Assembly (NCBI RefSeq): GCF_013076305.1
Contig: NW_027019640.1
Location: 4,938,378-5,002,377, forward strand
From: Rhopilema esculentum
Lineage: Eukaryota
Direction of reading: 5' to 3'
Length of the DNA: 64,000 bases
Shown: positions 12,201 to 53,024 of the stretch, piece by piece
How positions within the stretch are numbered: position 1 is the first letter of the stretch
Layout of the letters: each line of letters starts with the position of its first letter
The notes under the pieces: generated by a model
Told to the model about the DNA's origin: nothing
Databases searched by the model: none
Seen by the model: the letters and a program-made list of their open reading frames with translations, nothing else
Translations under genes and position numbers: made by a program

Positions 12201-12612
12201 TTTTTATACAGCCACGAAATTCAAATAATCATGTCAAAAATCAACATAAACTTTATAAAGATGGGTATGTTACTTGATAGGTTTTTTGCAAAAGTTATTT
12301 TTAAGGCGGGGCTTCTTCGAGGGGAGAGCTTATTCAAGGAGGGGTGTATCTCAAATTTTGTTACTTTTCTGAAAGGTTAACAAAAAACCATAATAATTTT
12401 GTTGAAATCTGACAAAACTTGTGATATGACAAAGCTCGTTTTTGCTTTTTTGTCATCAGCTAAAGATGTAATACTATATAGCTATTGTAGCTGAGTGTGA
12501 TTTAGAATAAGCTTTGTAGGGAGAAGCTAGTTAGCTGCTAATGCTTCCCGCGAAAAAGGGCTCATGAGGGCTTATTCGAGGGGGGCTAACTTTCGAAAAT
12601 AAATTTTTTTTA

Positions 12613-12867
12613 GGTGGGGGCTTGTTTGAGTGGGAGGTTTATACGGAGGTGGCTGGGGGCTAATTCGAGGATTTATGGTATATAACTTCGATTTCTGCAA
12701 GAAATCATAATTATTCATCATATGAGCCTCACTGAATTTTTAAGGTGGGGGCTTGTTCGAGTGGAAGGTTTATACGGAGGTGGCTGGGGGGCTAACTCGA
12801 GTATTTACGGCATATAACTTCGATTTCTGCAAGAAATCATAATTATTCATGATATGAGCCTCACTGA
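12613..12867. repeat. ~131-bp tandem repeat ×2, member of the dispersed GGGGGCTTATTCGAGG-containing family
   Basis: ggtgggggcttgtt(t/c)gagtgg(g/a)aggtttatacggaggtggctggggg(g)cta(a/c)(t)tcgag…tcataattattcat…atgagcctcactga, repeated. Related motifs at 12290–12360, 12530–12600, 32520–32600 (inverted, in a KCNQ intron) and 54270–54300. Confidence 0.7.
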
Positions 12868-13026
12868 TGTTGAATATATACCACATCATGTCATGCTAAG
12901 AATGAGTAAATTAAACAATACAAATTTCAATTTTCCCCGAAAAAATATGAAGCATTCTCTGTAATGATTGTATAATAACATTAAAACAAACATAAACACA
13001 AACTTGAACGCAAACATAAACGCCAC

Positions 13027-13137
13027 ATAACATAAATAACATAACATAACATAACATAACATAACATACATAACATAACATAACATAACATAACATAACA
13101 TAACATAACATAACATAACATAACATAACATAACATA
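13027..13137. repeat. (CATAA)n minisatellite (~20 units) embedded in AACATAAACRC 11-mer repeats
   Basis: cataacataacataac... uninterrupted except for one acata variant. It generates the spurious MLCYVMLCYV ORFs on the minus strand. Confidence 0.9.
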
Positions 13138-13209
13138 AACACGAACATAAACACAAACATAAACGCCAACATAAACGCCAAGAGATGCGTCAATCCTACG
13201 AAATAATGA

Positions 13210-13331
13210 GTACGCATACCCCCGTCAAATCGAAAGCCACATTACGATAATGTTTATGACTCACGTTGGAGTACGCATACCCCCGTCAAATCGAAAGCCA
13301 CATTACGATAATGTTTATGACTCACGTTGGA
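13210..13331. repeat. 61-bp tandem repeat, 2 exact copies
   Basis: gtacgcatacccccgtcaaatcgaaagccacattacgataatgtttatgactcacgttgga ×2. Confidence 0.85.
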
Positions 13332-16300
13332 CAAGCTTGCAAGATGTTCTTTCCTGTCTTAAAGTCGTCATTTTCGACAGAATAGAATTAAGTTAGTGAA
13401 AAAATGCAAGGATCTGGATGAGTCTTGTTTGGAACTGTTTCATTCTTTGAAATGCTAGATACGGAGTCGCAATTTGACAAACCAAGGTGAGTGAAGTACA
13501 AAAAAAGTTCGAGAAGCTACCTTTCAATTTTTTCAACTGTCCAGTCTTTTGTTCAGAAAATGAATCTTCAACAAGAGCAAATCTTCTTCCCTGCAACAGA
13601 ACAAATCTTCTTCCAGGCGACAATGGTGCAAGTTGAGTATGAAAACAATTTATAAGAAAATAATTAATAAAAGTTAAATCGTCTTGACACATTTCTTCAC
13701 GTAGTGAACGTAGCATTTTCTTTCATTGTACATTTGAATTTATACTCTTGTTTCCTTGCAAAAATATGGTCTTGGCTCAAATTGTTTGAGATGTTTAAAC
13801 GTGAGATGCTTGAGATGACTGCATAAACTTAGATTCTGAAGAGCAAAATAAACGATTGCAGCTCCCCAGCTTGCCAAAAGGACTTGATATTTAAACGTGT
13901 GACTTAATCTCATAAATGTTTTTTGCACCAGGCAAGATGCTGGCATAAACTTGATGCGGCATCTCGTTTCGGTCCTAGGCGCTTCTGTAAACTCTTTGCA
14001 GTACTCCTTGAGATAAACAATTACAGCTAAACCAAGAATTAATAACGAAGCCGTTTCATATTTCTCTACACTTGGAAGAATTTCCTTTGTATAATTAAAT
14101 TTACTTTCATAAATCCATTAAAATCTTTTGTTTAATTAAACAGTTTTTCTAAAAAACATACAGAATTAATAAGCACATAAGCTTTATCTCCATTGATATC
14201 TGTTTTGAACTGTTAATTAGAAAGTTATTCTAGGCAATGTTGGCAATCAAATTTTTCGAATTTTTCAAAGCCGTAAGACTTTAGTACAAAAATATCGACA
14301 AAGGCTTGTTCATTCAACAACCAAGCAAAAAAACTTGGGTTTTTTACGAAAATTTTAAATCTAGCTCTTTTAAAATGTTTTGCAATTATAACAGAAATCG
14401 TTCTACAACACACAATACCTTAATAGGTTTTTGACAAAAAGTCTTCGCAAATTGTGAGAAGACCTAGGTATTATCTTTGCAATTCTTTAAACATCGAATC
14501 AAACTTTAAAGGAGATTAATGTTTATTTAGAAATAGATTTGTAATATTTTCAAACTAGGAAATAATCTTGAGCCAGCGAAAGTATTACGATTTCATTAGA
14601 TTTGATATGTAAACAGGTATGGGTGTTGATAAAATCCCATTAACTTCTTTTTGTTAAAGAATTTTCGGCCATCACACACAGTTTACTATTTTCTGCATAT
14701 TATAATTATATGACTTAGCGTTTTTAAAAGGAAACTAGACTCTGATCTCGATAATGTTCTGATTAAATTTTCAGATAAACTTAATCAGTATAGATAGCCT
14801 CATGTTCAACTAATTCTAGAACTTACGTCTAACACTCAATTCTTCTTTAAACAATGAACGACCGGCTAATAGCAGCTTCAAGTTTAAATATATCAGTTAA
14901 GCGTCTAAATTGATATTGATTATTGCATTGTATATAAGGGAACTCTGGATGGTGCTGAAGAGGGGGGGTGAGGGACTGAGAGTGCTGCCTCCCCTTCCGC
15001 ACCCCGAGATCCCTGATGTATATACTAGGAATTGAGTTTAATGTGGTATCACAACCTTTCGAAATGGAATCAACAAGGGCATTTCTACTGATCTCTCTTC
15101 GACTATCTACAGAAACATTTTTGCAAAATAATTAAGTAGGGGCGATTGCAACTTTACCCTTTTGTTTATCGAAACTCTAGTTATTTCATTTTAAATTTAG
15201 GGTAAAGGGATCTTGCGTAGAAGCTAAAAAAAGGGAGCCATGATCTGATTATGTAGTTATTACCTTGAGTTCTCGTACAGGCAACAAAATTGAATGCGTG
15301 GTCTTGATTACCTGTTTGGCTGTCTAGCTTTATCTGCATCAACGATAAAAGTTTAAATGATTCTATTTTCCAAAGATATTTAAGATAAAAGTTGCGATAT
15401 CTTTAAAACTCCCCTACACGAATGCCTGGTCATGCCAAAGTTCAGAATTTGATCAGTCTTGCTACAATCAATTAAATGTCTTGATCGGGGCATTTGTGAT
15501 ACCAGTATGATATTTTGGATTTTCACTGATGTTAACTGTGTAAAAATATTTGTTCTTCAAAACAAAATATTTGTTCTTCATATATTATTTTCCGCAGTGA
15601 ACATTAAGTTCCTTTCATTTGTAGTTGCTCACTACATTCTGGCATAAGTATTTGTGTTTCTTGTTTCTTTTTTCTATTTTGAGAAAATAACATTGAGATA
15701 ACTTCCTTGTGGTAAGCCCGACTTTGCTCGTTCTATTGCTAACCCTAACTTTTCGAAACATTTCAGGTTCGTTTCTAGAGGTTTTCAGATTTCGGGTTCG
15801 CAATTAAAAGCCTTGGCATATAAAAATGTTTTCTGTCTGATACATTTCAAGTTATATTTCGTAAGAATGATGCTCGCTGAAGGTTAAATACTCCAACTGG
15901 TATCCAAGTGTTCGTCGGAAATGAAGCCAGTTACACGAGAAGGGTAGCGAAGCATCTCTCTATTCAATGGATTGCAATTGCGAGTGTTTGAGTGGATATT
16001 TTTCGGAAAATTCTCTAAAAGAAAACCATCCTTGATTGCTTCATCTACTTTCTTAGGTCTCCTCAGTAAACTTAGTAATCCTTCCTTCATCGAACTGGGC
16101 TTTTCGTATTCTAAGGAGTGCCCAGGGCCAACGCCAGGCTGGACTGCCCCAGGAGCAAAAGCCTTGGCGGCTCCCCAAATTGTTTTCGGTCCTGGTAACG
16201 CCCTTTCTCTGAAGTTGAAGGCTAAAATGAGCTTTATACCTTGCTTCGTAATTGTTAAAAAAATATGCCTTAATTTTGAGCATGGGCCATTCTTGGAGCC

Positions 16301-17559
16301 CAGGCCCCGGGGCATTGCTCCGACTGAACCCTTTTTGGCGCTACTTGGAGTGTCAAATGATTGCTATTTTTGGTGCTGTAATGCTGAAGCTTTCTTCTGC
16401 CAGAAAATTGACTTTCTATTTGAAGCAAATGATTTACTTCTGGTTTATGTTGATGCTGAAAAACCCTTCCACAAACTTATCACAATCCATTTCGCTTCTT
16501 CTTTTTTAATCCCTCTAATTTTTTTATCATTTTCTGCCTGTTCTCGTTAGTCTAGCTTTTATCTTTCTTTTACTTCTTGCTGTATTAGTTGATTTTCTAT
16601 GCTCCATACTTTATTCTTCAATGTGCAAGTATTCTTTTTTGTTTATTTTGCTCTATCTCCCACTCTTTCCTTCATTCATTTGCCTTCATTCATTCTCGTT
16701 TTTACCTCTCCGCTTTTTTAAACCGTTGTCTTTCTCTTCCACCCTCCCTTCCATTCTATCCTGCACCTTGTTTTCTTACCATAAATCATTCCTCCTTTAT
16801 AGTTTGTTTCTACCGTTCAAAAGAAACTCGAGGTGGTAAATCCTGACAATATTACGTGACACCGTTCTATTAATTCTGTTAGCTACCACGACTAAAACCA
16901 TTTTTTCCCTTATGAACTTACTTTGTGATATTGAATTATACAGAATTCATGATGAATTTCAAATAATGAGGACTATTTTCGCAAAACGCATTGTCCAAAA
17001 AAACAAGCAACTGTTTCATCATTTTGAAACCAGCAACATGCATTTTACTGGCCACACGTCCACGAAACATGAAATATTCTTTGTTTTAAACGGGCAGCCA
17101 AAAATTGAGGTATTCGTTTCATTGAAAACATGTAATCCACGTTGAAAGAAGGATATCGTGTGGTCTGCTCTCGACTTTCGCGTTGTTAAAATTTGGGAAT
17201 AGTGTATATTTCAACCCAAAACTGTTAATCTTTGAAGCAAGAGATTCTAATTTTATTAAGTATCAGGTGAGTAGGATAAAGATTACTCAAGACGCACGAG
17301 ATTCGAATAAAGAGTATATCAGATCTCCGCATGATAAATTTTTCATCAAAGTGTTTCAACTCATATATTAATGTAATTCTCTGATGCTCGTAGCAGCTTT
17401 TGATATCCGGGAAACTATCTTATTATCGGCATCACGATATAACACAGACAGAGACCTTGCTTTTACCTCGAATTAACTTTTCAACAACATCTAGAACAAC
17501 TCTCGTTCAATTCAACTGAACTCATAAAAAGCGAATGTTTTTAACGTGAATGACAATAA

Positions 17560-35499: not shown

Positions 35500-35706
35500 A
35501 CAGCGAGCATTCTTCTGCTGATAGCATAAGATCTGCGCATGTGCGCATGTCATTCAACCTACCACGAACAGAAAGAGGTTACTAAGAAGAGTTACACAGA
35601 ACCCAAAATTAGAAAACCCAAATATTGGGGTGGGAATGGACAAAGAAAGCACTCTTTCCTCTCTTGTCTCACCAAGCAAATGCGAATGTCTCACCTAAAA
35701 ACACGG
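35500..35706. repeat. Older dispersed repeat, left part, interrupted by the LTR-retrotransposon insertion. It continues at 42026–~42250.
   Basis: ...caacctaccacgaacagaaagaggttactaagaagagttacacagaaccc...attggggtgggaatggacaaagaaagcactctttcc... aligns with 55900–56040. The right flank 42026–42250 (gcctaagggtatgaagagttttcacaaac...aaaagcccctcgaaatttt) aligns with 56040–56280. Confidence 0.5.
35703..35706. other. Target-site duplication ACGG, left copy; right copy at 42026–42029
   Basis: acgg directly precedes the left LTR TG and directly follows the right LTR CA. Confidence 0.5.
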
Positions 35707-36136
35707 TGTGGGGAATCTCGTAAGGTCGTAGTTAAGGCCCTGTTACCTGAATCAAATTCCCAGTGACACTAAAGAAAACTCACTTTCGTTGGTTATGATG
35801 ATTATTATGCTCACAGAATGACATTCTTACGTGAGGCAACCTCAAACCCTCTCTAACTTTTACTGATAGTTGCGCTCAATTTATACAATTTTCTAAATAG
35901 CCCTGGTCATGGAAACCAGGTCAAAACAAAACCAAACATTACGTAATTTTCTAAAGCTAAAATAGATCTAAGTACAAATCAAAACAAAGCAATCGATATT
36001 GCGTCAGACAAGCAATTTGTAGCGTTGGTTGCAAAACAAAGAAACCACGGTTGACGACAGCGTGCGTTAAGTCTAATACTGTCCCTGACGAAATATATCG
36101 TTTTAAGCGATTACCTAACTTTTAAGATTTACCACA
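35707..36136 (-). repeat. 3' LTR in element orientation (430 bp)
   Basis: Direct repeat of 41598–42025; bounded by flank ...aaaacacgg|TGTGGGG and ...TTACCACA|ccctccccc (PPT side). Confidence 0.85.
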
Positions 36137-36149
36137 CCCTCCCCCTATT
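36137..36149 (-). other. Polypurine tract AATAGGGGGAGGG immediately upstream of the 3' LTR
   Basis: Plus strand ccctccccctatt directly abuts the LTR terminus ACCACA at 36136. Confidence 0.55.
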
Positions 36150-36166
36150 AAAATGTGACTACAGTT

Positions 36167-39100
36167 TTAATATCCATCTTCTAAGTCTTCCTGGTCTTCG
36201 TGAATCTTGACAGCAGCCATTTGATTTTTCGCATCATTTCTTGCCTTTCTTGGTAAACTCTCCCTTGGTCTGAACTCTTGAGCCTTCGGATTCAACTGGA
36301 CATCAACGGCACAGTTTTCTCCCCCAACTTCTAAATCGCAAATAAGTTGGAGCGGTCGCTCAACGATGTAACCGTTGCCTAACTTGATCTTTAATCCCCG
36401 TACGACACCATCCCTGCCGATAATTTTTCCAGCAACTCTTCCAATTCTCCACTGGGCTCTGTTTTTTGTGTCTTCTTTCAACAACACTACTTTGCCATTA
36501 TTCGGGATTTCAACGTGACTTCCATTTTGTTTGAGCTTTCTTTCCTCCAGCGCGTACAAGTATTCTCCCAACCACCTCTTTCGTAGCTGCTCCTTGCTTT
36601 TGGCCAGAAATACCATCCTTTTGGGAAGCGTTTCCTCGTCCCCTATTTTGTGCAGATCCTCTTGTAGCATATGTGCTGGTTGCCCTCTGATCAGTATGTT
36701 TGGCGTGATGACTGGGGTCTCGAACTCTTCGCCTTGGTAGCTCAGGGGGCGATTGTTCATTACGCATTCTATGTCCAAAAGTGCTTCTTCCAACTCTGCA
36801 AATTTGAGTATACTTCTACCAATAACCTTTGCGAGACTTCTTTTCATTGTGCCAATCAGCCGCTCAAAAAATCCTCCCCACCATGGGGCTCGTGAGAGGT
36901 TGAACCTCCATTTGATTTTGTCAGTTGCTAAGTAGTTCATCAACTCCTCATTCTTCTTGAGCCTGCTCAGCCACTTCTTGGTTGCAATGAAAGTCTTGCC
37001 ATTATCGCTAACCATTAGTTTTGGTGTGCCTCTTCTTGCGATGAATTCCTTCATTGCTCGCTGGAATTCTTCCGCCGTCAGGTCTCTGCATAATTTTAAA
37101 TGCACGGCTCTGGTTGTGGCGCACGTAAACAAGGCAATGTAAGCCTTCCCAACTGTCTTCTTGCTCACTCGGTACGTGATTGGTCCTGCAAAGTCAACGC
37201 CAGTGCACGCAAATGGATCTGTCATTTGTGACCTGAAACTTGGTAGCTGTGAGTTTGAAGGTGCTGCCAATCCCTGCACTCGAAACCTCTTGCACTTGTC
37301 ACAGTTGTGAATGACCTTTTTCACCAATGTGCGGAGTTTAGGTACCCAAAACCTTTCCCGTATGCAACTCATTGTCACAGATACTCCCCCATGCAACATT
37401 CTTCTATGGCATTGCTCAATTAGTCGTTCCACATAAGTGTTACTTCGTGGCAGAAATATCGGATTGTAGTCAGGCACTCTTCCATGGCATCTCCATATCC
37501 CTAGTGGATCCTTTTTCAGTGGGACATCAGGCCTTATCTCCTTAGCTTGCTGCACCTCCCTGATCCAAAACATCTCTGCTGATTCTATCTCTTCTGCTGT
37601 CAGCATCCCAGTCTGCTTCTCCTGTCTGCGACAGTTGGTTACAAATCGAAGTACCAGTGCTGTTATTCGCAATGTTTTCCAAAGTGTATGCTTTTCTAGA
37701 AGATCTTTTACAGCATTTGTAACAACCTTTTCTTCTTTGGCAAGCATTAGTCGTTCCTTTTTTGGCAACTTTTCAGCTTCTGTTTCTTTACTTTCCCCAA
37801 TTTCTGGTTGAACCGGCCAATCTTCTTTGCTTGATAGCCACTGTGGTCCATGAAACCAAAATGATTCCATTTGTGTTGGCTCAACTCCTCTGCTCCCCAA
37901 GTCGCTTGGGTTCTCACCAGTTGGTACATAGTGCCACTCCTCAATGTCGCTGTCGTTGATGGCCTTGACTCTATTGCGCACAAACTGGCGCCAAGTGCCC
38001 TTTCCTTTCAGCCAGTGCAGTACCGTAGTGCTATCAACCCATCCATGAATCTCTTCGATTTGGTAATCTTCCAGTGCCTTCTTCACACAGGCGACCAGTT
38101 TGCTCAGCGTATGAGCTGCTATAAGCTCTAGTCGTGGGATGGATTTCTCTGGTGCAACCCTTGCTTTTGCAGTGAGCAGGTGCTGGCTTGGTTCTTGATC
38201 GTTGTAATATGCAACCACGTAAACACATGCTGCCACAGCCATTTTACTCGCATCTGCAAAACCATGTAATGTGATGTACGCTACTTTTCCTTGAATGACA
38301 CTTCTAGAGACACTCAGCGATGGCCGCTTGATCAGTTTCTTGATCCAATTCTTCCACAAAGCTGCTACTTTACTCTTTATTTCTTCATCCCATGCCAACT
38401 TCTCCTTGCAAACTTGACTATACAGTAACTTGGCGGTTATAATGACTGCTGAAGCAAGTCCTAACGGGTCGAACACACCATTAATCACTGACAGCATCTT
38501 CCTTTTTGTTAACACACCATCATTTCCCGTCTCTGCACATCTTGACAGGCTAATTGTTAACTCGTCGTTTTTCTTGTTCCATGGAATTCCCAAGATCTTC
38601 GTCTCACATGATTTTGTACCAACTTCTGTCTTTGCATACGTTGTTGAATCTTCTTCTACTGACGTAGACACATTCTTCTCTGGTGTTGGGACTTCTGCTT
38701 CTGGAACATTGCTGTGCCATTTGTGTAGGTCAAATCCACCTTCCTGTAAAATCTGCGTTGCTTCTGCCTTGAACTTGAGCAGATCTTCTTCTTTATGACT
38801 TCCAAACTGTACGTCGTCCACGTAGGTATTCTTTAGCAAAGCCTCAACTGTTTCCGGGAACCTTTTTGTATACTGGCTGAGGTGGTTTTCCAGTGTAGCT
38901 CCGAGGATATATGGGCTTGGTGCTGAGCCGAAGATGACCCTTGTGAATCTGTAAGCAATCATTTTGCGTTCTTCTAGGTTGTTATACCAAACTAAACGTT
39001 GTGAATCGCGGTCAGCAGGGTCCAACTTTATTTGAAGGAATGCCTTCTTGATGTCACCAGTGATGCAGAGAGGTAGCATTCGGTTTCTCAGCAATATATT

Positions 39101-41542
39101 CAGTATCAATGGCTGCAAGGGTGGTCCCTTTTCCAAGCAGTCGTTAAGTGAAGGGTCCTCTGGGCTGGATCTTGCCGAGCAGTCGTACACAATTCGCATT
39201 TTAGTAGACTCAGCATCTTCCCTGATAACTGGTTGGTGGGGCACATAATGGATGATTTTACCACTTGGTTCTTCTGGAATTGATTCCAAAATCCCTTCTT
39301 TGACTTGTGCTTCCATCACCTCGTGGTACTCTTCCAGTTTCCCCAGCTTTTCCAACCGTCTTGTTGTACTGTGCAACCTGGCCACAGCAAGCGTCTTGTT
39401 TGTTGGCAACTGGACATGATCTTCTTTCCACGGCAGTCTAGTAGAATAAGTGCCATCACCTAGTCGTTGTAGGCTTCCTTTGAAGGCTTCATGAAAACCA
39501 TCTCCCGGTCCACTGTCTGTGTCTGCCAACCCTAGAACTTCTATTGAGCACATTTTTTCAAATTCTTCCTTTGGGGATAGCATCAAGAAGATCTTCTCTG
39601 TTCCTCCCTCAGTGTCCACGGTTCTTCCAGTCAGGGTCCATCCAAGCATAGTGAATTCTGCCCCGGGGTCGGCATCAGGATTTGGTCCAAGCACTGGAGG
39701 CTCTGTAGTCTTGATTCGTTGAAAATCTGCAGCACCCAAGATGATATGGATCGGTAGCCTATCTTCTTCCATATTTTCATCACCGAAAGTCAAACCTCTG
39801 AATCTGCTATACTTTGCCTTCAATGCCTTGATTCTTGGGTTGGGCAAGTATGTTAGAGTATCCTTCTCTCCGTTGATACACTTTAGGTCCAAGCAGAAAC
39901 CATCAACCACATTGGACTGTACCGTGACCTTGAATATTTGCACTCTTCTTTTTACGGTGCCATACATCTGCTCAATGTTCTTTGTCTCAACACCCACTGG
40001 CTTCAACCGTAGCTGCGTTATGAGGCTGGTGCAGATATACGAACTGCTTGATCCACTGTCCACCATAATACGTGCTGGTATTCCATTTACTTTGGCCAAA
40101 ATTGTCGCATGAAGGGTAGTTGTGACATCTAGTGCTCTCTTGCCCATCTCAGATTGCTGGTTCGCATTTTCTTCTCTACTCAGCGTCGTCGCATCGCATA
40201 AGGAGGTGTGGTGTCGCCTATCGCACTTTCTACACCCTCTGGATCTGCACTTGGAAGCTGTGTGCCCATAGCCAGTGCAATTAAAACAGAGCCTTTTGTT
40301 CTTCACAATCTCTCGCCTTCGAGCCAAATCAAGTACCTTCTGACAGTCTGAACTTTTGTGATTGTTGTAGTCGCAGTAGACACAACTGTTTTGTTTTCCC
40401 TTTGCTCTGTCCATTGTGTTTGCTAACATCATTTTGTCTCGTGGCTTCCACTCTGCTTGGTAGTCGCTAGACCTCTTCTTGGTACCACCAATTTCACTAA
40501 CTGGTAACGGATGTCTGTCGATGTATTTCTCCAGATTTTCCACAAGTTCCTGTAGGTCCCAATTTTCCCAGTCATCATCCTTCTGAATCAAAGATTCTTT
40601 CACCGATCCAAGCTTATCAACTAGCGTGTAGACATAGCTTTGGGCGCTATCCAGCTTCTTCATGGTCACCAGAGTGCGGACAATCCTTGCCAATTTGTTG
40701 TAGAAATCGTGGATCTTCGCAGTGTTGTGAATGCTTGAAATTGATTCCAGCCCTTCAAGCTCCTTGATTAAAGCTTTGTGTATTTTGATGTCCTTGCCAT
40801 AGGTCTTTTGCAGGATCCTTTTAGCTTCCTCGTAGCCATCTGCAGTGTGGGGTAGGCCCAGGATGTCCTCTTTAGGTTTCCCGTCTAGCAATTCTAGCAA
40901 GTAATTAAACTTACTGATTTCTGCAATGCATGATGCATCCACTTCTACCATAAACTGATTCCAAAATCGGAGCCAGTCCTTGTAATCTCCCTTGAATGGA
41001 GTGATCGTGTACTTCTGAAGTTTCACCGACTGCTGCTGCGGCTTGACATGTACATCTTCCTCTTTTCGCTTCTTTGCCAGTTCCATCTCCATTTCCAATT
41101 TTTTATTGTACCATCGCTCCTCTCGTTCTTGTTCACGGATTTTTGCCTCTTCCTTTTCTTGTTCCCGTCTTCTGTCAATTGATGCTTTTTCTTCTATAAG
41201 TCGCCGTTGGTGCTTCAGCTCGTCTTCTTTCTTCTGTTCTGTCTCTCTTCGTCTAAAGCCATCCAGCTCTTCTTTTAGCCTTTTCCTCATGTTTCGGAAT
41301 TCTTTGATTTTTTCCTTCTGCTCTTTGTTCCATTCCCGTACTTGATCGATTGTCCTCTCCTCAGCAAGCATTTCCTCTGTGATTTTGTCTTTTGAGATTT
41401 CCAGTTTTCTTGTGATTTCGCAGACTCTTTCATAGGCCACCTCTATTTCCTCCTTTTCTCCTGACTCCAAAGCCTCTTGAACGTCTTCCAACACGATTTT
41501 ACCAGTTGTTAGTTCTTGGTTGTATTTTTCCTCAGCTGCCAT
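36167..41542 (-). CDS. Gag-Pol polyprotein, 1791 aa, no internal stops or frameshifts
   Basis: Longest ORF in the ORF track. Domains in order: N-terminal charged coiled-coil; three CCHC zinc knuckles (CVYCDYNNHKSSDC, CFNCTGYGHTASKC, CRKCDRRHHTSLC); aspartic protease MVDSGSS; RT with YVDD; RNase H (FADASK); integrase HHCC (H..H...C..C) and DDE residues (GVDFAG, VSDNG, FFERLIG). Confidence 0.9.
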   Translation of the reverse strand: MAAEEKYNQELTTGKIVLEDVQEALESGEKEEIEVAYERVCEITRKLEISKDKITEEMLAEERTIDQVREWNKEQKEKIKEFRNMRKRLKEELDGFRRRETEQKKEDELKHQRRLIEEKASIDRRREQEKEEAKIREQEREERWYNKKLEMEMELAKKRKEEDVHVKPQQQSVKLQKYTITPFKGDYKDWLRFWNQFMVEVDASCIAEISKFNYLLELLDGKPKEDILGLPHTADGYEEAKRILQKTYGKDIKIHKALIKELEGLESISSIHNTAKIHDFYNKLARIVRTLVTMKKLDSAQSYVYTLVDKLGSVKESLIQKDDDWENWDLQELVENLEKYIDRHPLPVSEIGGTKKRSSDYQAEWKPRDKMMLANTMDRAKGKQNSCVYCDYNNHKSSDCQKVLDLARRREIVKNKRLCFNCTGYGHTASKCRSRGCRKCDRRHHTSLCDATTLSREENANQQSEMGKRALDVTTTLHATILAKVNGIPARIMVDSGSSSSYICTSLITQLRLKPVGVETKNIEQMYGTVKRRVQIFKVTVQSNVVDGFCLDLKCINGEKDTLTYLPNPRIKALKAKYSRFRGLTFGDENMEEDRLPIHIILGAADFQRIKTTEPPVLGPNPDADPGAEFTMLGWTLTGRTVDTEGGTEKIFLMLSPKEEFEKMCSIEVLGLADTDSGPGDGFHEAFKGSLQRLGDGTYSTRLPWKEDHVQLPTNKTLAVARLHSTTRRLEKLGKLEEYHEVMEAQVKEGILESIPEEPSGKIIHYVPHQPVIREDAESTKMRIVYDCSARSSPEDPSLNDCLEKGPPLQPLILNILLRNRMLPLCITGDIKKAFLQIKLDPADRDSQRLVWYNNLEERKMIAYRFTRVIFGSAPSPYILGATLENHLSQYTKRFPETVEALLKNTYVDDVQFGSHKEEDLLKFKAEATQILQEGGFDLHKWHSNVPEAEVPTPEKNVSTSVEEDSTTYAKTEVGTKSCETKILGIPWNKKNDELTISLSRCAETGNDGVLTKRKMLSVINGVFDPLGLASAVIITAKLLYSQVCKEKLAWDEEIKSKVAALWKNWIKKLIKRPSLSVSRSVIQGKVAYITLHGFADASKMAVAACVYVVAYYNDQEPSQHLLTAKARVAPEKSIPRLELIAAHTLSKLVACVKKALEDYQIEEIHGWVDSTTVLHWLKGKGTWRQFVRNRVKAINDSDIEEWHYVPTGENPSDLGSRGVEPTQMESFWFHGPQWLSSKEDWPVQPEIGESKETEAEKLPKKERLMLAKEEKVVTNAVKDLLEKHTLWKTLRITALVLRFVTNCRRQEKQTGMLTAEEIESAEMFWIREVQQAKEIRPDVPLKKDPLGIWRCHGRVPDYNPIFLPRSNTYVERLIEQCHRRMLHGGVSVTMSCIRERFWVPKLRTLVKKVIHNCDKCKRFRVQGLAAPSNSQLPSFRSQMTDPFACTGVDFAGPITYRVSKKTVGKAYIALFTCATTRAVHLKLCRDLTAEEFQRAMKEFIARRGTPKLMVSDNGKTFIATKKWLSRLKKNEELMNYLATDKIKWRFNLSRAPWWGGFFERLIGTMKRSLAKVIGRSILKFAELEEALLDIECVMNNRPLSYQGEEFETPVITPNILIRGQPAHMLQEDLHKIGDEETLPKRMVFLAKSKEQLRKRWLGEYLYALEERKLKQNGSHVEIPNNGKVVLLKEDTKNRAQWRIGRVAGKIIGRDGVVRGLKIKLGNGYIVERPLQLICDLEVGGENCAVDVQLNPKAQEFRPRESLPRKARNDAKNQMAAVKIHEDQEDLEDGY
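36443..37420 (-). other. Integrase (aa ~1375–1700): HHCC zinc finger plus DDE catalytic core
   Basis: CHRRMLHGG...HNCDKCKRF (HHCC); D in TGVDFAGP, D in MVSDNGKTF, E in GGFFERLIG. Confidence 0.65.
37913..38305 (-). other. RNase H region (aa ~1080–1210)
   Basis: GFADASKMAVAACVY ... LELIAAHTL ... positioned between RT and IN; assignment by position and motif pattern only. Confidence 0.5.
38663..39265 (-). other. Reverse transcriptase core (aa ~760–960); YVDD at nt 38813–38824
   Basis: Motifs LPLCITGDIKKAFLQI, YRFTRVIFGSAPSP and NTYVDDVQFG match RT boxes. Confidence 0.7.
39743..40105 (-). other. Aspartic protease region (aa ~480–600), catalytic D495-S-G
   Basis: Motif IMVDSGSSSSYI upstream of RT; the retropepsin-like DSG motif. 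Confidence 0.6.
40196..40384 (-). other. Gag nucleocapsid region: three CCHC zinc knuckles (aa 387–449)
   Basis: C-X2-C-X4-H-X4-C spacing, three copies; coordinates derived from aa index. Confidence 0.7.
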
Positions 41543-41570
41543 TTTGCCCTTGATATCCTTGTCTTTGATG

Positions 41571-41590
41571 TGGTCCTGGCAGGGTCGCCA
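41571..41590 (-). other. Primer-binding site candidate: TGGCGACCCTGCCAGGACCA in element orientation, 7 nt from the 5' LTR
   Basis: Reverse complement of tggtcctggcagggtcgcca. It begins with TGG and is complementary to a tRNA-like 3' end ...GTCCTGGCAGGGTCGCCA, lying between the LTR end and the Gag ATG at 41542. Confidence 0.5.
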
Positions 41591-41597
41591 CTTTTAG

Positions 41598-42025
41598 TGT
41601 GGGGAATCTCGTAAGGTCGTAGTTAAGGCCCTGTTACCTGAATCAAATTCCCAGTGACACTAAAGAAAACTCACTTTCGTTGGTTATGATGATTATTATG
41701 CTCACAGAATGACATTCTTACGTGAGGCAACCTCAAACCCTCTCTCTTTTACTGATAGTTGCGCTCAATTTATACAATTTTCTAAATAGCCCTGGTCATG
41801 GAAACCAGGTCAAAACAAAACCAAACATTACGTAATTTTCTAAAGCTAAAATAGATCTAAGTACAAATCAAAACAAAGCAATCGATATTGCGTCAGACAA
41901 GCAATTTGTAGCGTTGGTTGCAAAACAAAGAAACCACGGTTGACGACAGCGTGCGTTAAGTCTAATACTGTCCCTGACGAAATATATCGTTTTAAGCGAT
42001 TACCTAACTTTTAAGATTTACCACA
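41598..42025 (-). repeat. 5' LTR in element orientation (428 bp), TGTGGGG...TTACCACA
   Basis: Direct repeat of 35707–36136, differing by a 2-bp indel (ctctctaactttt vs ctctctctttt); TG...CA termini. Confidence 0.85.
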
Positions 42026-43599
42026 ACGGAAAGGTCAAATAGCACACAAGTTGCCTAAGGGTATGAAGAGTTTTCACAAACAAAAGCCCCTGAAGGACAA
42101 AATTTCAGTAACATTGGTTATATTCTTGTAGAATGGAAATATGCAAAACGTAAGGAAGGTGGCCATAACGAATAGCTAACAATATAAATTCAGGGCGAAT
42201 AATAAATAGTACAAAAGCCCCTCGAAATTTTAACTCTGATTAACTTTGAGTTGATAATAATTTTTCTCCAGTTACTCCAATAATGCTGTTTCTGCTATTC
42301 CACAAATTGATTTTCGTAATGCTAGACATTTGTTGCCATTACAGACAGTAGGTATGCTTTTGTGCTTCGCTCGTATCTTGTTTTTTCTGAACAGAGAGTT
42401 TCCGAGTAGTGCAATTTTTTTAGAGGAAATTGCTAGTTAAAACAGTTACTAATCTGAGTAATTTTAGCTGTTATTGCAGGCTAATTGTAGCTGATAAGAT
42501 AAGAGACAGATAGCCAATGACCTCCCATCTGTACTTCAATTTACAACTTTCAACCGGCTTGCGAGACCTAGAAGTGTTTGTAAATGTAAAAGACCATTGT
42601 AAATGTTTTCTGGTCGCAGACGTGTAGCCAAATAATCGATTATGCAACGTACTTGGGTTCTTCTTAGGAAAGTTGATTTCGATAAGTCAGTAAATGGGTG
42701 GGCTAGGCTGATGGGCCTAAACCCCGAATAAGTAGCACGCAATAGCTACTCCTTTCTTGATGTTATCGCTATAGAGTGGCGGAGTGCGACGTCATCTATT
42801 TTTAAATTTAAGAATTCTGACTCTATATCCTAAAAGAACACCACGAAATACCTCTTAATGTGCAAAATCAGTTGACAGAGTACAGAAAACATGACGGTTC
42901 TACGGCTGTGAAGAAGGCCATGTCATGTATAACCTCAAAAGAGTGATAAAAGTGAGAAGAATTTACTGTTGCCCTGGAAAATTTTTAGGAAGGTATAAAG
43001 TGCAAAAGAATCTTCCGCGGGGAGGTTGAGGTATTTTCTGAACTCTGACAGTTGAATCTGTTTGGAATCCACTGCGCTATTGGCACATGTGCACGTGCCC
43101 TTTCCCCAGGTTTTAATATCTATGAACCAGACAAAAAACAGTGTGCATGTTATGTGTAATTATGTTTTCAAGTTCTAAAGTTCATAATCTACCCTTCAGT
43201 GTTGACCGTCGCAACTAACATCGTATGATATCGCTCTTAGTATAGATTATTTTAATTACGAATTCTGTCTAGGTATTTTCGTGTTCTGCAATTAAATCAA
43301 ACTGTAAACCCCTTGCTCTTTGTGGGCAAAAGGTCGGCAGCAGTTACCCCCCTTCCACTTTCAAATCAAGATGTTTCGTTGGGCTAGATTTATACCATAC
43401 GCATTCAATTGATTCAAAAATTTCCATATTTATCCCAATCCCAAGCTAACTGAATGTTATCAAATGCGACAATGCGGTGGAAATCGACAGAGAACAGAAA
43501 TTTCGTGGTATTTTTTCCATTGATTTGAAAGCCTATAATGCGTACGGTACACAAGCATCGTTAAAAACAATGGTTTGTATTTTATTTGCATGGGGCAAG

Positions 43600-46563: not shown

Positions 46564-46854
<291 letters not shown>

Positions 46855-47253
46855 TGAAAATTTTTCAATTTGTTTTGCACTGGATGAAAAAATGTTATGT
46901 ATATGAACATATATTTATTACCATTGCATTGTCAATGCTGAATTAACAGTACTTGATGTTCAGTAGCACAGAGGAATTGATATAGTAGAAGTTAGGCTAA
47001 AAATAAATAATTAAAACTAAATATGTTTGCTGTTACTCAGAGTTTTGTGCTTGTGCACTCATCAGGCAGGCTTCAATACTAATAGGCTGCCTGTTTGATA
47101 TATATATAAGACTAGTTATTATTGCTCTTTATAGTAAATGTAGTTGTCTTGATTGTCTCTAGGTTTACAGGTATCTTTTGCAATGCTTTTATTATATACC
47201 ATTATTTGTGCAAAAATTGCCCTACAGAGTTAATTTACACGTAACTTAAATGA

Positions 47254-47607
<354 letters not shown>

Positions 47608-47678
47608 TAAGTTATGCTGATATTCATGGCTAATTGAGCATACTCTCTATCACTTAAGGCTCTCATTTTTGTCAAATA

Positions 47679-48139
47679 CAGTAGAAACCCGCATTAAAGA
47701 ACCTGTCTTTATAAGAACCTTGAGTCTGAAATTTAATCAATTTTAAAAACCCCCAAGAGGCTGAAGTTTGGAAAGGTTCTCAAATATATATATATATAAG
47801 AAAAAGGGTTTTTAGAATTGTATTTTTACACCCTATTCACACTGGCAAATTGAACCAGCTAAGAGTAAATTAGATTATGGTATGTTACATTCTAATTAGA
47901 CAATCTAACAACACAAATTCATTTTATTGGCTTGAAATTTAACATAAAAACAAAGCTGGTTCAAGTGTTTCTGTTGGAATTCTTGCTGTGGAAAACATTG
48001 TTAATGTGTTCAAGGCCTTTACATATACAAGAACCTTGTTAAGAACCTTCAGACTAGAATTAAGAATAGCAGCCTATTAATTAAGAACCTATTCAGGCTG
48101 TCAGAAAAAACATATGTTCTTTTATGCGGGTTTCTACTG
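47679..48139. mobile_element. Tc1/mariner-like MITE (461 bp) in PABPC intron 2, with 26-bp TIRs and TA target-site duplication
   Basis: TIRs CAGTAGAAACCCGCATTAAAGAAC (47679–) and GTTCTTTTATGCGGGTTTCTACTG (–48139), one mismatch. Flanked by TA (47677–47678 and 48140–48141). Internal subterminal AAGAACCT repeats. No ORF. Confidence 0.6.
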
Positions 48140-48320
48140 TAAATATTTTGTCAAACACACTACCTTGGGAATGTTTTCCAAAAAAATTATCATCAATGAA
48201 ACGGCAGTAATTTTAATGCCAAGTACTTTATAACTTATTCTTGTAGAGATGATATATATATGCATAATGCACTTATTGTAAGAGTCTACAATGTTGCGAA
48301 CCTAAACATTTTTTTTCTAG

Positions 48321-48555
48321 GTTTGTGGGCCCTTTCATCTCAAAAAAGGAGCGAATGGAAAAATTTGGTGATATGCCTAAGAGATTTAAGAATGTTTTCG
48401 TCAAGAACTTTGGTGAGATGGTTGATCACGAAGAATTAAAAGAAATTTTTTCACAGTTTGGAGCTATCACAAGTTGTATAGTTATGACTGATGAAACTGG
48501 AAAGAGTCGGGGTTTTGGTTTTGCTGCTTATGAAGATCATGAATCTGCTGAAAGA
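48321..48555 (+). CDS. PABPC: PABPC exon 3 (RRM2/RRM3 region)
   Basis: (V)FVGPFISKKERMEKFGDMPKRFKNVFVKNFGEMVDHEELKEIFSQFGAITSCIVMTDETGKSRGFGFAAYEDHESAER. Acceptor tttctag; donor GTAAGT at 48556. Confidence 0.9.
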
Positions 48556-49300
48556 GTAAGTTTTGGCTAAATGCAGTTCATGCATTTGTTATATCCTCTT
48601 TGTTGATATGCTTTGTGCAATTCTCAAATATAAAAGTTATATATATATATATATTGTACAGTTGAAAAGACGTGTACACTAGTAAAAATGCAAATTTTGC
48701 CGACTAGTTTCGACTTTCTGTCGTATTCATGGCAATCAACTGATTCCAATTACATAAAGCATATCTAAATATAGGCTATTCTAATGTGACGTTTCATTGT
48801 TTATTAATATGATGTAAGACCTCACCCCAGAAATAAAGTCTGTTGTTTGACAAAATGCACGAATGAATTGGGAAAACGAGGTTATGAAATGTATTGCCCT
48901 ATATAGGGCTATTGAGTTCCATGTTTAACCCAAGCGGACTTAGGGTTTTCAGTTTTTTTATCCAAAAGTCTTCTCGTCGTTGCAATCGAGATCTTAAGAG
49001 TTCCTTGTCGCCTTCAAGAGACTTAAGCTGTTCAATTATATATTATAAATTTCGCGTCATTATTGAAGTTGTGGGAAGTGTTGTTAAAATGTTGGCAAAC
49101 TGGTATTGATGCTGATTTACTTGAGTCTTTTCGGTGGTTGTTTATTCGTAGATTAACTTGTGTTTCTGATTAACCAATGTATTGTAAACCGCATTTTATA
49201 CATTCTAGTAGATAGATCACAAAGTTACTTTTGCAGTTAACCTTATGTCGGATCACAAAATCTATATATATATATATATATATATATTAATATTATATAA

Positions 49301-49369
49301 GATACTTGCAATATAGATTTAATCGCAGAAAAATCATTTTTCTGCGATTAAATCTATATTGCAAGTATC
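49301..49369. repeat. Perfect 69-bp palindrome flanked on both sides by (TA)n tracts, in PABPC intron 3
   Basis: gatacttgcaatatagatttaatcgcagaaaaat c atttttctgcgattaaatctatattgcaagtatc; flanks tctatatatatatatatatatatatattaatatt… and …aaatctatatatatatatatttctatatac. Confidence 0.7.
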
Positions 49370-49725
49370 TATCAACTGCTTTTTGCGGAATATCAACATA
49401 AATCTATATATATATATATTTCTATATACAGTATACCTACCTTATTAGAACTTATATTCTCCCGAAGAGTGAGTTATTCATGAAATATGCTTGTTACATG
49501 TAGTTTGATTTTCTTCTACTCTAAATTTTATATACCTTAATATTTATGTAAACCTGGAATCAGGCTACAAACAGAATATTGTTGATTTTGAGTTAATTTG
49601 TATATATTTGATACAATTCTAAATGAGCAACATAGACAATATCTATGTGGTGTCAATATATATGTCTCCTTGACAATTTCGTGGTTCTATATTTGTATAA
49701 AAGGGGGCGCTGTCTTTCCTTCTAG

Positions 49726-49990
49726 GCTGTCAATGAAATGAACAATAAAGAAATCAAAGGAAGGAAAATAACAGTTTGTCCTGCACAGAAAAAGGCTGAA
49801 CGAAGCAATGAATTGAAAATGAGGTTTGAGATACAAAAGCAAGAGAGAATCAATCGTTACCAAGGTGTGAACTTGTTTATCAAGAACCTTGAGGACACAA
49901 TTGATGACGAGAGACTGAGAAAAGAGTTCACCCCTTACGGCACTATCACCAGTGCCAAAGTAATGAGAGATGAGAAGAATGACTCCAAAG
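49726..49990 (+). CDS. PABPC: PABPC exon 4 (RRM3/RRM4)
   Basis: [88 protein letters not shown](G). Acceptor ttccttctag; donor GTATCC at 49991. Confidence 0.9.
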
Positions 49991-50241
49991 GTATCCTGTT
50001 TTGATCTTGTTAGAACATTCTGTTTAGATTTGATGGAATAGGCCTCTGCTCTGAAGAAGTCTTCCTGTTTCCCTCCAAGTTGTCAAACCAATGGAAGTAG
50101 TTAAGAGTAACAGAAATATATGTATATATTTGGCCTAAGCTATAAATTTTTTTTTATATTTATATATTCCAGATTGCGTTGTCTATTCTGACGTGACAGT
50201 GCTCGATTTGCAAAAGCACAGAGCAATAGATATAATAAAAT

Positions 50242-50367
50242 AGAAGATAGGCTAGAAATGAGACATGTTCTCTGTTACTCTGAGTTTCGTGCTTGCACAC
50301 TCATCATACAGCGCAAGCACGAAACTCAGAGTAACAGAGAACATGTCTCATTTCTAGCCTATCTTCT
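50242..50367. repeat. Perfect hairpin / inverted repeat: 55-bp arms and 16-nt loop, in PABPC intron 4
   Basis: agaagataggctagaaatgagacatgttctctgttactctgagtttcgtgcttgc – acactcatcatacagc – exact reverse complement. A non-palindromic paralogue lies at ~46962–47080 in intron 1 (…ctgttactcagagttttgtgcttgtgcactcatca…). Confidence 0.7.
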
Positions 50368-50911
50368 TTTTTTATATTTATTTATATATATATATATATA
50401 CTTATTTAATGCTAGTGATCTTCTGTTTCATTCATTGTGAAGCAAAGCATTTGATGATAGCTGAAATTATGACTCAAAGGGAAATAATAATAAGTTAATT
50501 GATTGACCAGAAACAAAGACACCATATAAATATCATTTTATTTCTGGTGTGCTACTTGCATCATTTAATTAGTGGGCCTTGTGTAGCCATATGATATTTT
50601 CTTATATAAGTCCTTAGATGTACCCATTTTTTTATAAGTTATTGTTGTTATGACTTTGAAAGGTAAAAAGATGTTCTAATAATTTACATTTCTTTAAGTT
50701 TTTGTCGCTTTTAGTACAAAAGTTCCTAGGGAGATTAAAGTGGTAACAAACATTTCCAAAGTAGAGGTCCTTATCCATTCAGTAGAAATAAGAAAAGGTT
50801 GTTTTTTGTTTGCCAAGTGAAATCTCCTAATTTGAAAGTGGGCAGTGATTGCGAGTGAAATGACAATTCAGCTTTGCATTGCTTGTATCAATCTGTATTT
50901 TTTTGTTCTGA

Positions 50912-51211
<300 letters not shown>

Positions 51212-51467
51212 TGATATTTCTCAAACGCTTTACAGTCAATGTGCACAAAGATGGAGCTGCTCAAGACAGCATACATTTTGTTTAGCTGTCTGTTAAATAA
51301 GTGTTTTTAGTTTGTCCTGTTCCCTTTGAAAAAATTTCTCTTAAGATTTGAGCATTTATATACATATATTTGATTGTGAGTCGTTTTGGAAAAGATACAA
51401 GTATTTAATTTCGAAGCGAGCGATTTTTTTAAACTGGTGACTCTAAATTTCCATTTTTCAAACTCAG

Positions 51468-51794
51468 AGGGCCATTGCTTTGCAACAAGCGCAAGTTCCA
51501 ATGCAAGGCAGACCGAGATGGGCAGCCCCAAATCAAAATCAAATACGATCAAATGTGTCATACATCCAGACTAACGTTCAGAGGCAGCCGAGACCACGTC
51601 AGTCGATGGGGGCTAGAGGAGTCAACCCACAGGCTTTGGCTGGACGAGGTGCTATGCCCCAGCCTAGACCATCTGTGGCACAACCAAGACCTCCAGCATA
51701 TAAGATCACTGCCACTGTTCGTAATCAGCCAGCACAGGGCAATGTTATGAGCCAGCCAGCCGTCCCACAAGCAGACCCAGGAATGTCAGTGCAG
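51468..51794 (+). CDS. PABPC: PABPC exon 6 (Pro/Gln/Ala-rich linker)
   Basis: RAIALQQAQVPMQGRPRWAAPNQNQ...PRPPAYKITATVRNQPAQGNVMSQPAVPQADPGMSVQ. Acceptor aactcag; donor GTAAGC at 51795; phase 0 on both sides. Confidence 0.85.
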
Positions 51795-52751
51795 GTAAGC
51801 CGCTGTCACTTCAATATACGTTGGTGTAGCGAAACTTTGAGGCATAGTTTTACAATGACAAAGATTTGCGTTTGTGCAAGGAAAGGTTTAATGAATTATC
51901 CAGGAAAGAAATTGGACCGTTTAGGATTTTGCTATCATTTTCTAATTCTGTATAGAGTTTAAGCTTCTGGAGGCACTTTTTGCTTTCTGTTTTTGTTTCA
52001 TCATAAACCTGAAAGCAGGTGTAATGCCAAAGTTTTGAGTTTTGACGTGGTATCCCTAGGCAATGGTGTTGCCAAATGAAACATGGTAACCATCATGTTC
52101 TAATGACTGACTTTGTCAATTCATTTCACTGCAAACAAAAGTTTGTCAAGCAGTAGAAATGTCAATGTTTATCACCATAAATGTCTGTCCATTGCGTCCA
52201 AAAATACTTAAAAAAATTATCCGCTAAAAACTTCTCTCTCTGACAAGGACTCACACATTGCGGAAGTTAAAGAGATTGCTAGCACAACAAAGACAAACAA
52301 TTTTAAGGTTAAACATTAATGTTGCAGGGTTTTTTATATGTGACAAAAATGAAGCGGAATATATTATCCTCCCTAATTTTTCCTTTCCATTTGATTCCAA
52401 TAATTTTTTGGTCATCTCTTGCTTAAATGTCATCGCTGTATTTTTCACTAAAGCATCAAATTTCGCATTACAAACTAGTCTTTCTCGCTTGTGATTGCCA
52501 GTAGTGTATCCGTCCGCTTCCATAAAACTCATGCCTCCATGACACACATGATGACCTTAGAACAAAGTGAAATATTTTTCGTTTCACTCAGTGTGAAGTT
52601 TGGGCATTTTTTTCAAGACCAAGTAGATGAAATGTGAGAATTTTCCAGTGTGCACCAGTGAAAAAGTATATGTGTGAACTAGAACTTATGTAGATTTTTT
52701 CAGTTATCTTAAATAGAAATTTGGTAAAGGATATAATTTTAAATTTTGAAG

Positions 52752-53024
52752 GATCCATTGACTGCATCATCTCTTGCCAATGCAACACCCCAAGAGCAAA
52801 AGCAAATGATTGGTGAACGACTGTTCCCTATGGTGCAAGAATTTGAACACCATCTTGCTGGAAAGATCACTGGTATGTTACTGGAAATTGACAATACTGA
52901 GTTGCTGCATATGTTGGAATCACGCGAGTCGTTGCACACCAAGGTTGAGGAAGCCGTACAAGTGCTGAAAGCTCATCAAGCCAAGGAAGCCGCTACTGCC
53001 GCCTCTGCGCCCGAGGGTGTTTGA
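52752..53024 (+). CDS. PABPC: PABPC exon 7 (PABC/MLLE domain and stop)
   Basis: [90 protein letters not shown]. Nearly identical to the vertebrate PABC region ([24 protein letters not shown]). The start coordinate is taken from the ORF-track frame; my own base count gives 52751, so ±1. Confidence 0.88.

Follow-up and report, generated by a model that had tools for sequence, protein, structure and literature searches.

A full-length, probably recent BEL/Pao retrotransposon of the Tas superfamily upstream of a poly(A)-binding protein gene in the jellyfish Rhopilema esculentum

Does the genome of the jellyfish Rhopilema esculentum carry, upstream of a poly(A)-binding protein (PABP) gene, a retrotransposon that arrived so recently that it may still be mobile? 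The question is raised by a stretch of 64,000 nucleotides (positions 4,938,378 to 5,002,377 of contig NW_027019640.1, assembly GCF_013076305.1), here called the window, in which a first-pass annotation had described an apparently active, very young BEL/Pao-like long terminal repeat (LTR) retrotransposon. We find that window positions 35707-42025, minus strand, hold a full-length LTR retrotransposon of 6319 bp, with a G+C content of 0.43-0.45 against about 0.35 in the surrounding DNA. We conclude with strong confidence that this is a structurally intact, recently integrated and autonomous copy of the Tas clade of BEL/Pao, oriented opposite to the PABP gene and about 4.6 kb upstream of it. All coordinates below are window positions.

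Structure and coding capacity of the element

The boundaries and priming sites of the element could each be assigned to exact positions, from its 5' to its 3' side, as follows.

42026-42029, minus strand: 5'-side target site duplication (TSD), CCGT in the orientation of the element and ACGG on the plus strand, read directly
41598-42025, minus strand: 5' LTR, 428 bp, TGTGG...CCACA
41591-41597, minus strand: 7-nt linker CTAAAAG between the 5' LTR and the primer binding site, the same in 4 of 4 related elements
41573-41590, minus strand: primer binding site (PBS), TGGCGACCCTGCCAGGAC, 18 nt, starting 7 nt past the 5' LTR
36137-36146, minus strand: polypurine tract (PPT), AGGGGGAGGG, 10 nt, adjoining the 3' LTR, the same in 4 of 4 related elements
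35707-36136, minus strand: 3' LTR, 430 bp, TGTGG...CCACA, carrying an extra TT
35703-35706, minus strand: 3'-side TSD, again CCGT (plus strand ACGG), matching the 5' copy

The PBS, PPT, TG..CA termini and 4-bp ACGG duplication of the first-pass annotation are therefore all located; the CTAAAAG linker was missing from its description. Its claim that the LTRs differ only by a 2-bp indel also holds, as an alignment on the element strand gives identity at 428 of 428 aligned positions and a single difference, the extra TT found only in the 3' LTR (window 35855-35856, LTR position 281; the counterpart site in the 5' LTR is 41745/41746). Each LTR has a single TATAAA at position 252 (41769-41774 in the 5' LTR). 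The TT indel lies 29 nt 3' of this TATAAA, near the predicted U3/R boundary and transcription start, and its source may be a mutation after insertion, an error of reverse transcription or an error of assembly.

Because ARAGORN and Rfam detected neither tRNAs nor RNA families in the window, the primer tRNA was identified via metagenome contigs. For this purpose the reverse complement of the PBS was extended into the inferred T-loop, and the resulting pattern was run on these contigs. Matches were obtained on 28 of them, and on 26 of the 28 the matching sequence forms the 3' end of a tRNA-Arg(ACG) gene, which ends in ...GGTTCGAGTCCTGGCAGGGTCG and, with the CCA tail added, complements the PBS over 18 nt. 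Scored against these metagenome-contig genes rather than the host's own gene, all 18 nt of the PBS are complementary to the tRNA-Arg(ACG) 3' end with its CCA. On three of the contigs (L005, L018 and L024) the PBS-matching genes stand in dense tRNA clusters of up to 15 tRNA genes per 3 kb, and on several others tRNA-Arg(ACG) recurs at about 0.5-0.6 kb from a tRNA-Asn(GTT) gene.

The coding capacity of the element resides in one open reading frame (ORF), uninterrupted by a stop codon or frameshift, as had been claimed, whose ATG (context CAAAATGG) lies 30 nt past the PBS. Its domains map as follows.

36167-41542, minus strand: Gag-Pol ORF, single, 1791 aa, without internal stop, including the TAA at 36167-36169
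40604-40996, minus strand: Gag core DUF1759, aa 183-313 (Pfam E=4.3e-19)
40196-40384, minus strand: nucleocapsid triple Cys-His box, aa 387-449 (CX2CX4HX4C, CX2CX4HX4C, CX2CX3HHX3C)
39626-40096, minus strand: aspartic protease, aa 483-639 (Asp_protease_2, 24.5 bits at a cut-off of 24.3, aa 483-543)
38546-39253, minus strand: reverse transcriptase (RT), aa 764-999 (RVT_1, 34.6 bits, aa 817-940)
37901-38509, minus strand: RNase H region, aa 1012-1214 (Peptidase_A17, E=7.7e-42, aa 1012-1171, extended to D1214)
37280-37435, minus strand: HHCC zinc-binding domain of the integrase, aa 1370-1421 (Integrase_H2C2, 46.3 bits)
36857-37201, minus strand: catalytic core of the integrase, aa 1448-1562 (D1450, D1513 and E1560, that is DD(47)E)
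36332-36607, minus strand: integrase-associated C-terminal domain DUF5641, aa 1646-1737 (Pfam E=3.3e-12)

Conservation of individual residues was judged from a family alignment of the window protein and 55 full-length homologues (56 sequences). The Gag motifs noted in the first pass are in place: FKGDYKDW and FWNQF lie at aa 183-197 inside DUF1759, their residues kept in 45-53 of the 56 sequences, and the three knuckles start at aa 387 (CVYCDYNNHKSSDC), 419 (CFNCTGYGHTASKC) and 437 (CRKCDRRHHTSLC), the third with an HH doublet. In boxes 1 and 2 the Cys and His residues are all invariant, and H445 and C449 of box 3 are found in 49 of 56. In the protease we recognise the D495-S-G active site (VDSGS; D495 in 55 of 56), ILGAAD at aa 601-607, whose D606 is kept in only 34 of 56, and GWTLTG at aa 634-639 (G634 in 56 of 56), which corresponds to the GW.L.G motif already reported. 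D787 of RT motif A and the YVDD at aa 907-910 are invariant or nearly so. The RNase H catalytic residues D1097 (the DAS motif, in FADAS at aa 1095-1099), E1139, D1170 and D1214 are kept in 55-56 of 56; the Pfam name of this region, Peptidase_A17 or 'Pao retrotransposon peptidase', is a misnomer, as the region is really RNase H. In the integrase H1379, C1414 and C1417 are invariant and H1384 is kept in 55 of 56. All predicted catalytic residues are thus present in the polyprotein. A sequence search of the PDB with the polyprotein gave no match at E<=0.01.

On its own strand the element contains no further ORF of 100 aa or more, and the gap of 20 nt between the TAA stop and the PPT (30 nt between the stop and the 3' LTR) is too short to hold an env gene.

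The N-terminus of Gag upstream of DUF1759 (aa 1-180; 41003-41542, minus strand) is highly charged, with 49 D/E and 45 K/R residues. Most close homologues can be aligned to it (median 159 of 180 residues), and its ratio of nonsynonymous to synonymous differences per site (pN/pS), 0.16-0.18, shows purifying selection; in more distant relatives, from insects, the alignment covers only about 87-88% of the whole polyprotein query. This segment may be a clade-specific coiled-coil extension of Gag.

Sister families, selection and the age of the insertion

Three related elements from ENA long-read assemblies were available for comparison, the first two being the closest database relatives of the window protein.

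L001 (ERZ25066852): 83% amino acid identity, LTR of 394 bp, LTR pair 99.7% identical, TSD TAAT
L002 (ERZ25067901): 81% amino acid identity, LTR of 389 bp, LTR pair 100% identical, TSD CTAC
L033 (ERZ25878500): 70% amino acid identity, LTR of 570 bp, LTR pair 100% identical, TSD AGAC

All three resemble the window element in the length of their polyproteins (1784-1791 aa), their TGTGG..CCACA ends and their 4-bp TSDs, and they share its CTAAAAG linker, 18-nt tRNA-Arg PBS and PPT exactly. In contrast, their LTRs differ in length and their U3 cannot be aligned with that of the window element; across families the LTR is alignable only over its last ~100 nt (positions 327-428), which are probably part of R plus U5. 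Because their synonymous divergence (dS) from the window element is about 0.7-0.95, we regard them as distinct families or subfamilies. Clustering at 90% identity puts the two closest relatives in clusters of about 8 and at least 10 full-length proteins, and since the members of each cluster lie on different contigs, these sister families are multicopy, with young insertions, in their hosts.

Comparison with these relatives also bears on intactness. At the 119 near-invariant columns of the family alignment (at least 95% conserved in the other 55 sequences) the window protein has 0 deviations, whereas among the homologues the median is 1 and the maximum 21. Relative to L001 and L002, the Nei-Gojobori ratio of nonsynonymous to synonymous divergence (dN/dS) of the ORF is 0.13 and 0.105, respectively, and pN/pS ranges from 0.08 to 0.36 over the regions of the protein; regional divergence is given as p-distances, since pS in gag exceeds 0.75 and thereby the range of the Jukes-Cantor correction. 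Since dN/dS is about 0.1 and pN/pS is low in every region, these ratios indicate that the lineage leading to the window copy has been under continuous purifying selection, the pattern expected of elements that persist by transposition.

Synonymous divergence from L001 and L002 is very uneven along the ORF (36167-41542, minus strand). Against L001, pS is 0.87 in the DUF1759 part of gag, 0.69-0.76 in the knuckle and protease regions and 0.23-0.28 in RNase H, linker and integrase. This suggests either a mosaic or recombinant history, through template switching between subfamilies, or a regional constraint on codon use or composition. One possibility is that the contrast between gag and the RNase H-integrase part reflects recombination of co-packaged RNAs from different subfamilies.

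The insertion itself was described in the first pass as very young, and more than a few percent of mismatch between the LTRs had been named as a sign of greater age. We count 0 mismatches. Zero substitutions over 428 LTR sites place divergence (K) below 0.007 at the 95% upper bound, and therefore the insertion at less than about 0.35-3.5 million years, if the neutral rate is taken as 1e-8 to 1e-9 per site per year, a range that is not specific to the species.

Several points limit the case for an active copy. The canonical AATAAA was not found in the LTR, nor was a second copy or a solo LTR found within the 64-kb window. No protein at least 90% identical to the ORF occurs in a collection of 5.8 billion protein clusters, and the exact polyprotein is not in the contig index, which lacks the host genome (the host PABP protein is absent from it as well); the copy number of the element in its host could be one. 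As to the profile searches suggested in the first pass, RVT_1, Peptidase_A17, DUF1759 and DUF5641 all matched, whereas rve (aa 1455-1528) scored 30.3 bits, under its cut-off of 32.6, and DUF1758 (PF05585) was not detected in the polyprotein at E<=0.01, the protease being found by Asp_protease_2 instead; DUF1758 is, strictly, no diagnostic character of BEL/Pao, and among the homologues PF05585 is listed for distant relatives only. Transcription, processing and integration of the element are read from sequence features. Finally, gene conversion can also keep LTRs identical.

The last point leads to the alternative that the copy is intact but old, its LTRs having been held identical by inter-LTR gene conversion or by strong constraint, a reading which gains from the fact that the insertion is dated by the LTR pair alone. 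Neutral decay would, however, bring stops and replacements with time, yet the 5.4-kb ORF is open and deviates at none of the 119 near-invariant columns; the TSD is perfect; and the three sister elements with the same young-LTR profile are a better fit to ongoing turnover of the family. We therefore consider great age very unlikely and retain recent integration as the explanation of the identical LTRs. Nothing contradicts the structural reading of the element, and the limits listed above concern its activity only.

Placement in the Tas superfamily of BEL/Pao

The polyprotein matches the BEL/Pao-specific Pfam models above their cut-offs (Peptidase_A17, PF05380, 143.4 bits against 22.3; DUF1759, PF03564, 69.4 against 25.4; DUF5641, PF18701, 46.9 against 23.1), and it matches no Ty3/Gypsy- or Copia-specific Pfam model such as the chromodomain. 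Its domain order, Gag followed by protease, RT, RNase H and integrase, is that demanded of BEL/Pao, and its host is a metazoan, as is also required. Hallmarks listed for Pao/BEL elements (PMC554778) comprise three Cys-His boxes, the third of them with an HH doublet, a protease that has DSG and a second motif of the LIG type, YVDD, the DAS of RNase H and an integrase whose DD(49)E spacing is unusually long. The window element shows every one of them, its integrase spacing being 47, and nearly all of the hallmark residues are invariant or close to it in the 56 sequences, D606, H445 and C449 being the exceptions.

Of the seven superfamilies into which BEL/Pao has been divided, Tas, Sinbad and Flow are reported to include cnidarian elements (de la Chaux & Wagner 2011, PMC3118150). 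Additional files 4 and 6 of that study supplied our clade references, which are labelled consensus domains of RT and of the so-called protease, in fact RNase H. The top three RT matches are all to cnidarian Tas elements, namely Hydra NC-73 (263 bits, 57% identity), Hydra NC-53 (147 bits) and Nematostella NC-175 (145 bits), and the best match outside Tas reaches 134 bits. A neighbour-joining tree was built from BLOSUM62 distances over 366 concatenated RT and RNase H/A17 columns with 13 references and 300 bootstraps; its references are all BEL/Pao, with no Ty3/Gypsy or Copia outgroup, so that it supports placement inside BEL/Pao only. The window element groups with Hydra NC-73 in 300 of 300 bootstraps and with all four Tas references in 294 of 300. 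Since the tree and the RT matches both group it with Tas references, the 'BEL/Pao-like' label of the first-pass annotation can be refined: assignment of the element to the Tas superfamily of BEL/Pao is supported by these sequence comparisons.

It could be argued that the element is instead Ty3/Gypsy, or an env-bearing retrovirus-like element, as the order protease-RT-RNase H-integrase is also found in Ty3/Gypsy (PMC3118150) and the generic models Asp_protease_2, gag-asp_proteas, RVT_1 and rve are matched. We consider this highly improbable, however, because the strongest Pfam matches are Pao-specific (Peptidase_A17 at 7.7e-42, DUF1759 and DUF5641), all 93 of 93 homologues, the named ones mostly cnidarian, carry the same domain set, the tree puts the element inside the Tas superfamily, and an env cannot fit into the 20 nt between stop and PPT or the 30 nt between stop and 3' LTR. 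A domesticated, co-opted host gene derived from Gag-Pol would likewise have a long open ORF under strong purifying selection (dN/dS ~0.1), but this hardly merits credence for a sequence that retains both LTRs, PBS, PPT and TSD and has relatives at unrelated loci with different TSDs and several copies per assembly, the more so as a low dN/dS is expected of lineages that survive only by transposing.

Within the Tas superfamily the closest labelled reference is Hydra magnipapillata NC-73 (PMC3118150), which, like the window element, has a cnidarian host. The two are 57% identical in RT (263 bits) and 47% identical in RNase H/A17 (130 bits), and they have the motifs PSLNDCLE.GP, DIKKAFLQI, RFTRVIFGS and APWWGG.FERLIG in common. 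They differ in that the host of NC-73 belongs to the Hydrozoa rather than the Scyphozoa, and by about 45-50% divergence in the most conserved domains, as compared via consensus domains only. Tas of Ascaris lumbricoides, the founder of the clade, is in the same superfamily by the PMC3118150 classification, and the nematode Tas-clade reference NC-72 falls within the window element's clade in 294 of 300 bootstraps. Compared by description only, Tas lacks a triple Cys-His box (PMC554778), whereas the window element has one.

Sinbad of Schistosoma mansoni (PMC554778) is alike in size (6287 bp, with identical 386-bp LTRs) and likewise lacks env; its Gag-Pol has the domains in identical order, with a triple Cys-His box, DSG, YVDD and DAS; the integrase spacing is long in both, DD(49)E in Sinbad and DD(47)E here. 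It differs in belonging to the Sinbad superfamily, the RT of the window element being about 28-29% identical to Sinbad-clade references, and in lacking the HH doublet of the third knuckle, which the window element has.

Another BEL/Pao family (L031/L032), with 35% identity to the window protein, is represented at 90% identity or more both in NCBI R. esculentum and in ENA ERZ25067906. Its two copies have identical 1723-aa polyproteins, each with a 100% identical pair of 220-bp LTRs (702-921 and 6214-6433), and L031 only has an additional pair of 219-bp repeats outside its LTRs (255-473 and 6954-7172), which suggests a nested or tandem arrangement.

Predicted life cycle, genomic setting and significance

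The sequence features of the element can be read in terms of the established cycle of LTR retrotransposons, each activity being a prediction. RNA polymerase II would initiate in the 5' LTR about 30 nt past the single TATAAA and terminate in the 3' LTR, and the RNA would be translated without frameshift into one Gag-Pol polyprotein, to be cut by the DSG aspartic protease. Gag, with its DUF1759 core and nucleocapsid of three zinc knuckles, would package the element RNA. Host tRNA-Arg(ACG), paired with the 18-nt PBS, would prime synthesis of minus-strand DNA by the YVDD reverse transcriptase; RNase H (DEDD) would leave the AGGGGGAGGG tract intact as primer of the plus strand; and two strand transfers would regenerate identical LTRs. 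The HHCC/DD(47)E integrase would then join the TG..CA ends over a 4-bp staggered cut, giving rise to the ACGG duplication. That the element is apparently active and possibly still mobile, in the words of the first pass, we infer from its sequence. The family may still be transposing in R. esculentum, with the insertion upstream of PABP polymorphic among individuals, a proposition we hold tentatively and lean slightly against.

The PABP gene was located on the plus strand by tblastn with human PABPC1, which gave at least six coding exons within 46609-52979.

46609-46791, plus strand: PABP coding exon (tblastn)
47293-47613, plus strand: PABP coding exon (tblastn)
48322-48558, plus strand: PABP coding exon (tblastn)
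49726-50001, plus strand: PABP coding exon (tblastn)
50966-51211, plus strand: PABP coding exon (tblastn)
52749-52979, plus strand: PABP coding exon (tblastn)

The gene encodes a cytoplasmic poly(A)-binding protein, and its concatenated exons are 100% identical to the NCBI entry 'polyadenylate-binding protein 4-like [Rhopilema esculentum]', which shows that the window derives from this scyphozoan. The distance of about 4.6 kb to the element, on the opposite strand, is measured from the first coding exon; the element may lie within an intron of the 5'-UTR or between genes.

Elsewhere in the window, a cluster of tandem repeats at 12606-13331, which may be a piece of another repeat element, comprises the following.

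12606-12867: 132-bp unit, two copies, 93% match
13025-13138: (ACATA)n, 23 copies
13208-13331: 61-bp unit, two copies, 100% match

At 15884-16550 two overlapping ORFs on opposite strands, of 143 aa (minus) and 192 aa (plus), have no Pfam match; probably they occur by chance, or else they are what is left of an unclassified repeat. Besides Gag-Pol the window has five long ORFs, and none of them gave a Pfam match.

The element is an ordinary one, of a known BEL/Pao kind that will not surprise a specialist; it is not a new kind of element, and it leaves the understanding of BEL/Pao function unchanged. Its value is practical rather than conceptual, in that LTR boundaries, primer tRNA, PPT, TSD and domains have been mapped to the base. 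LTR elements account for 2.60% of the R. esculentum genome (bioRxiv 10.64898/2026.04.17.719288), and in the genome paper of the species they were annotated in bulk with LTRharvest and LTRdigest (PMC7305137); so far scyphozoan LTR elements have been annotated only in bulk. Because it is fully annotated to the base, the window copy provides a clean reference for a scyphozoan Tas-clade BEL/Pao family, and the first-pass suggestion that it would serve well for annotating its family is borne out by the complete base-level map. Small-RNA libraries of R. esculentum, including PIWI-interacting RNAs (piRNAs), have been published (PMC7305137), and if the family is live, the element would be a concrete target for mapping them and for surveys of insertion polymorphism. 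Should it indeed be still transposing and polymorphic, it would stand among the few individually characterised candidates for a live scyphozoan LTR retrotransposon, and could provide a population marker or a model of somatic and germline piRNA control in jellyfish.

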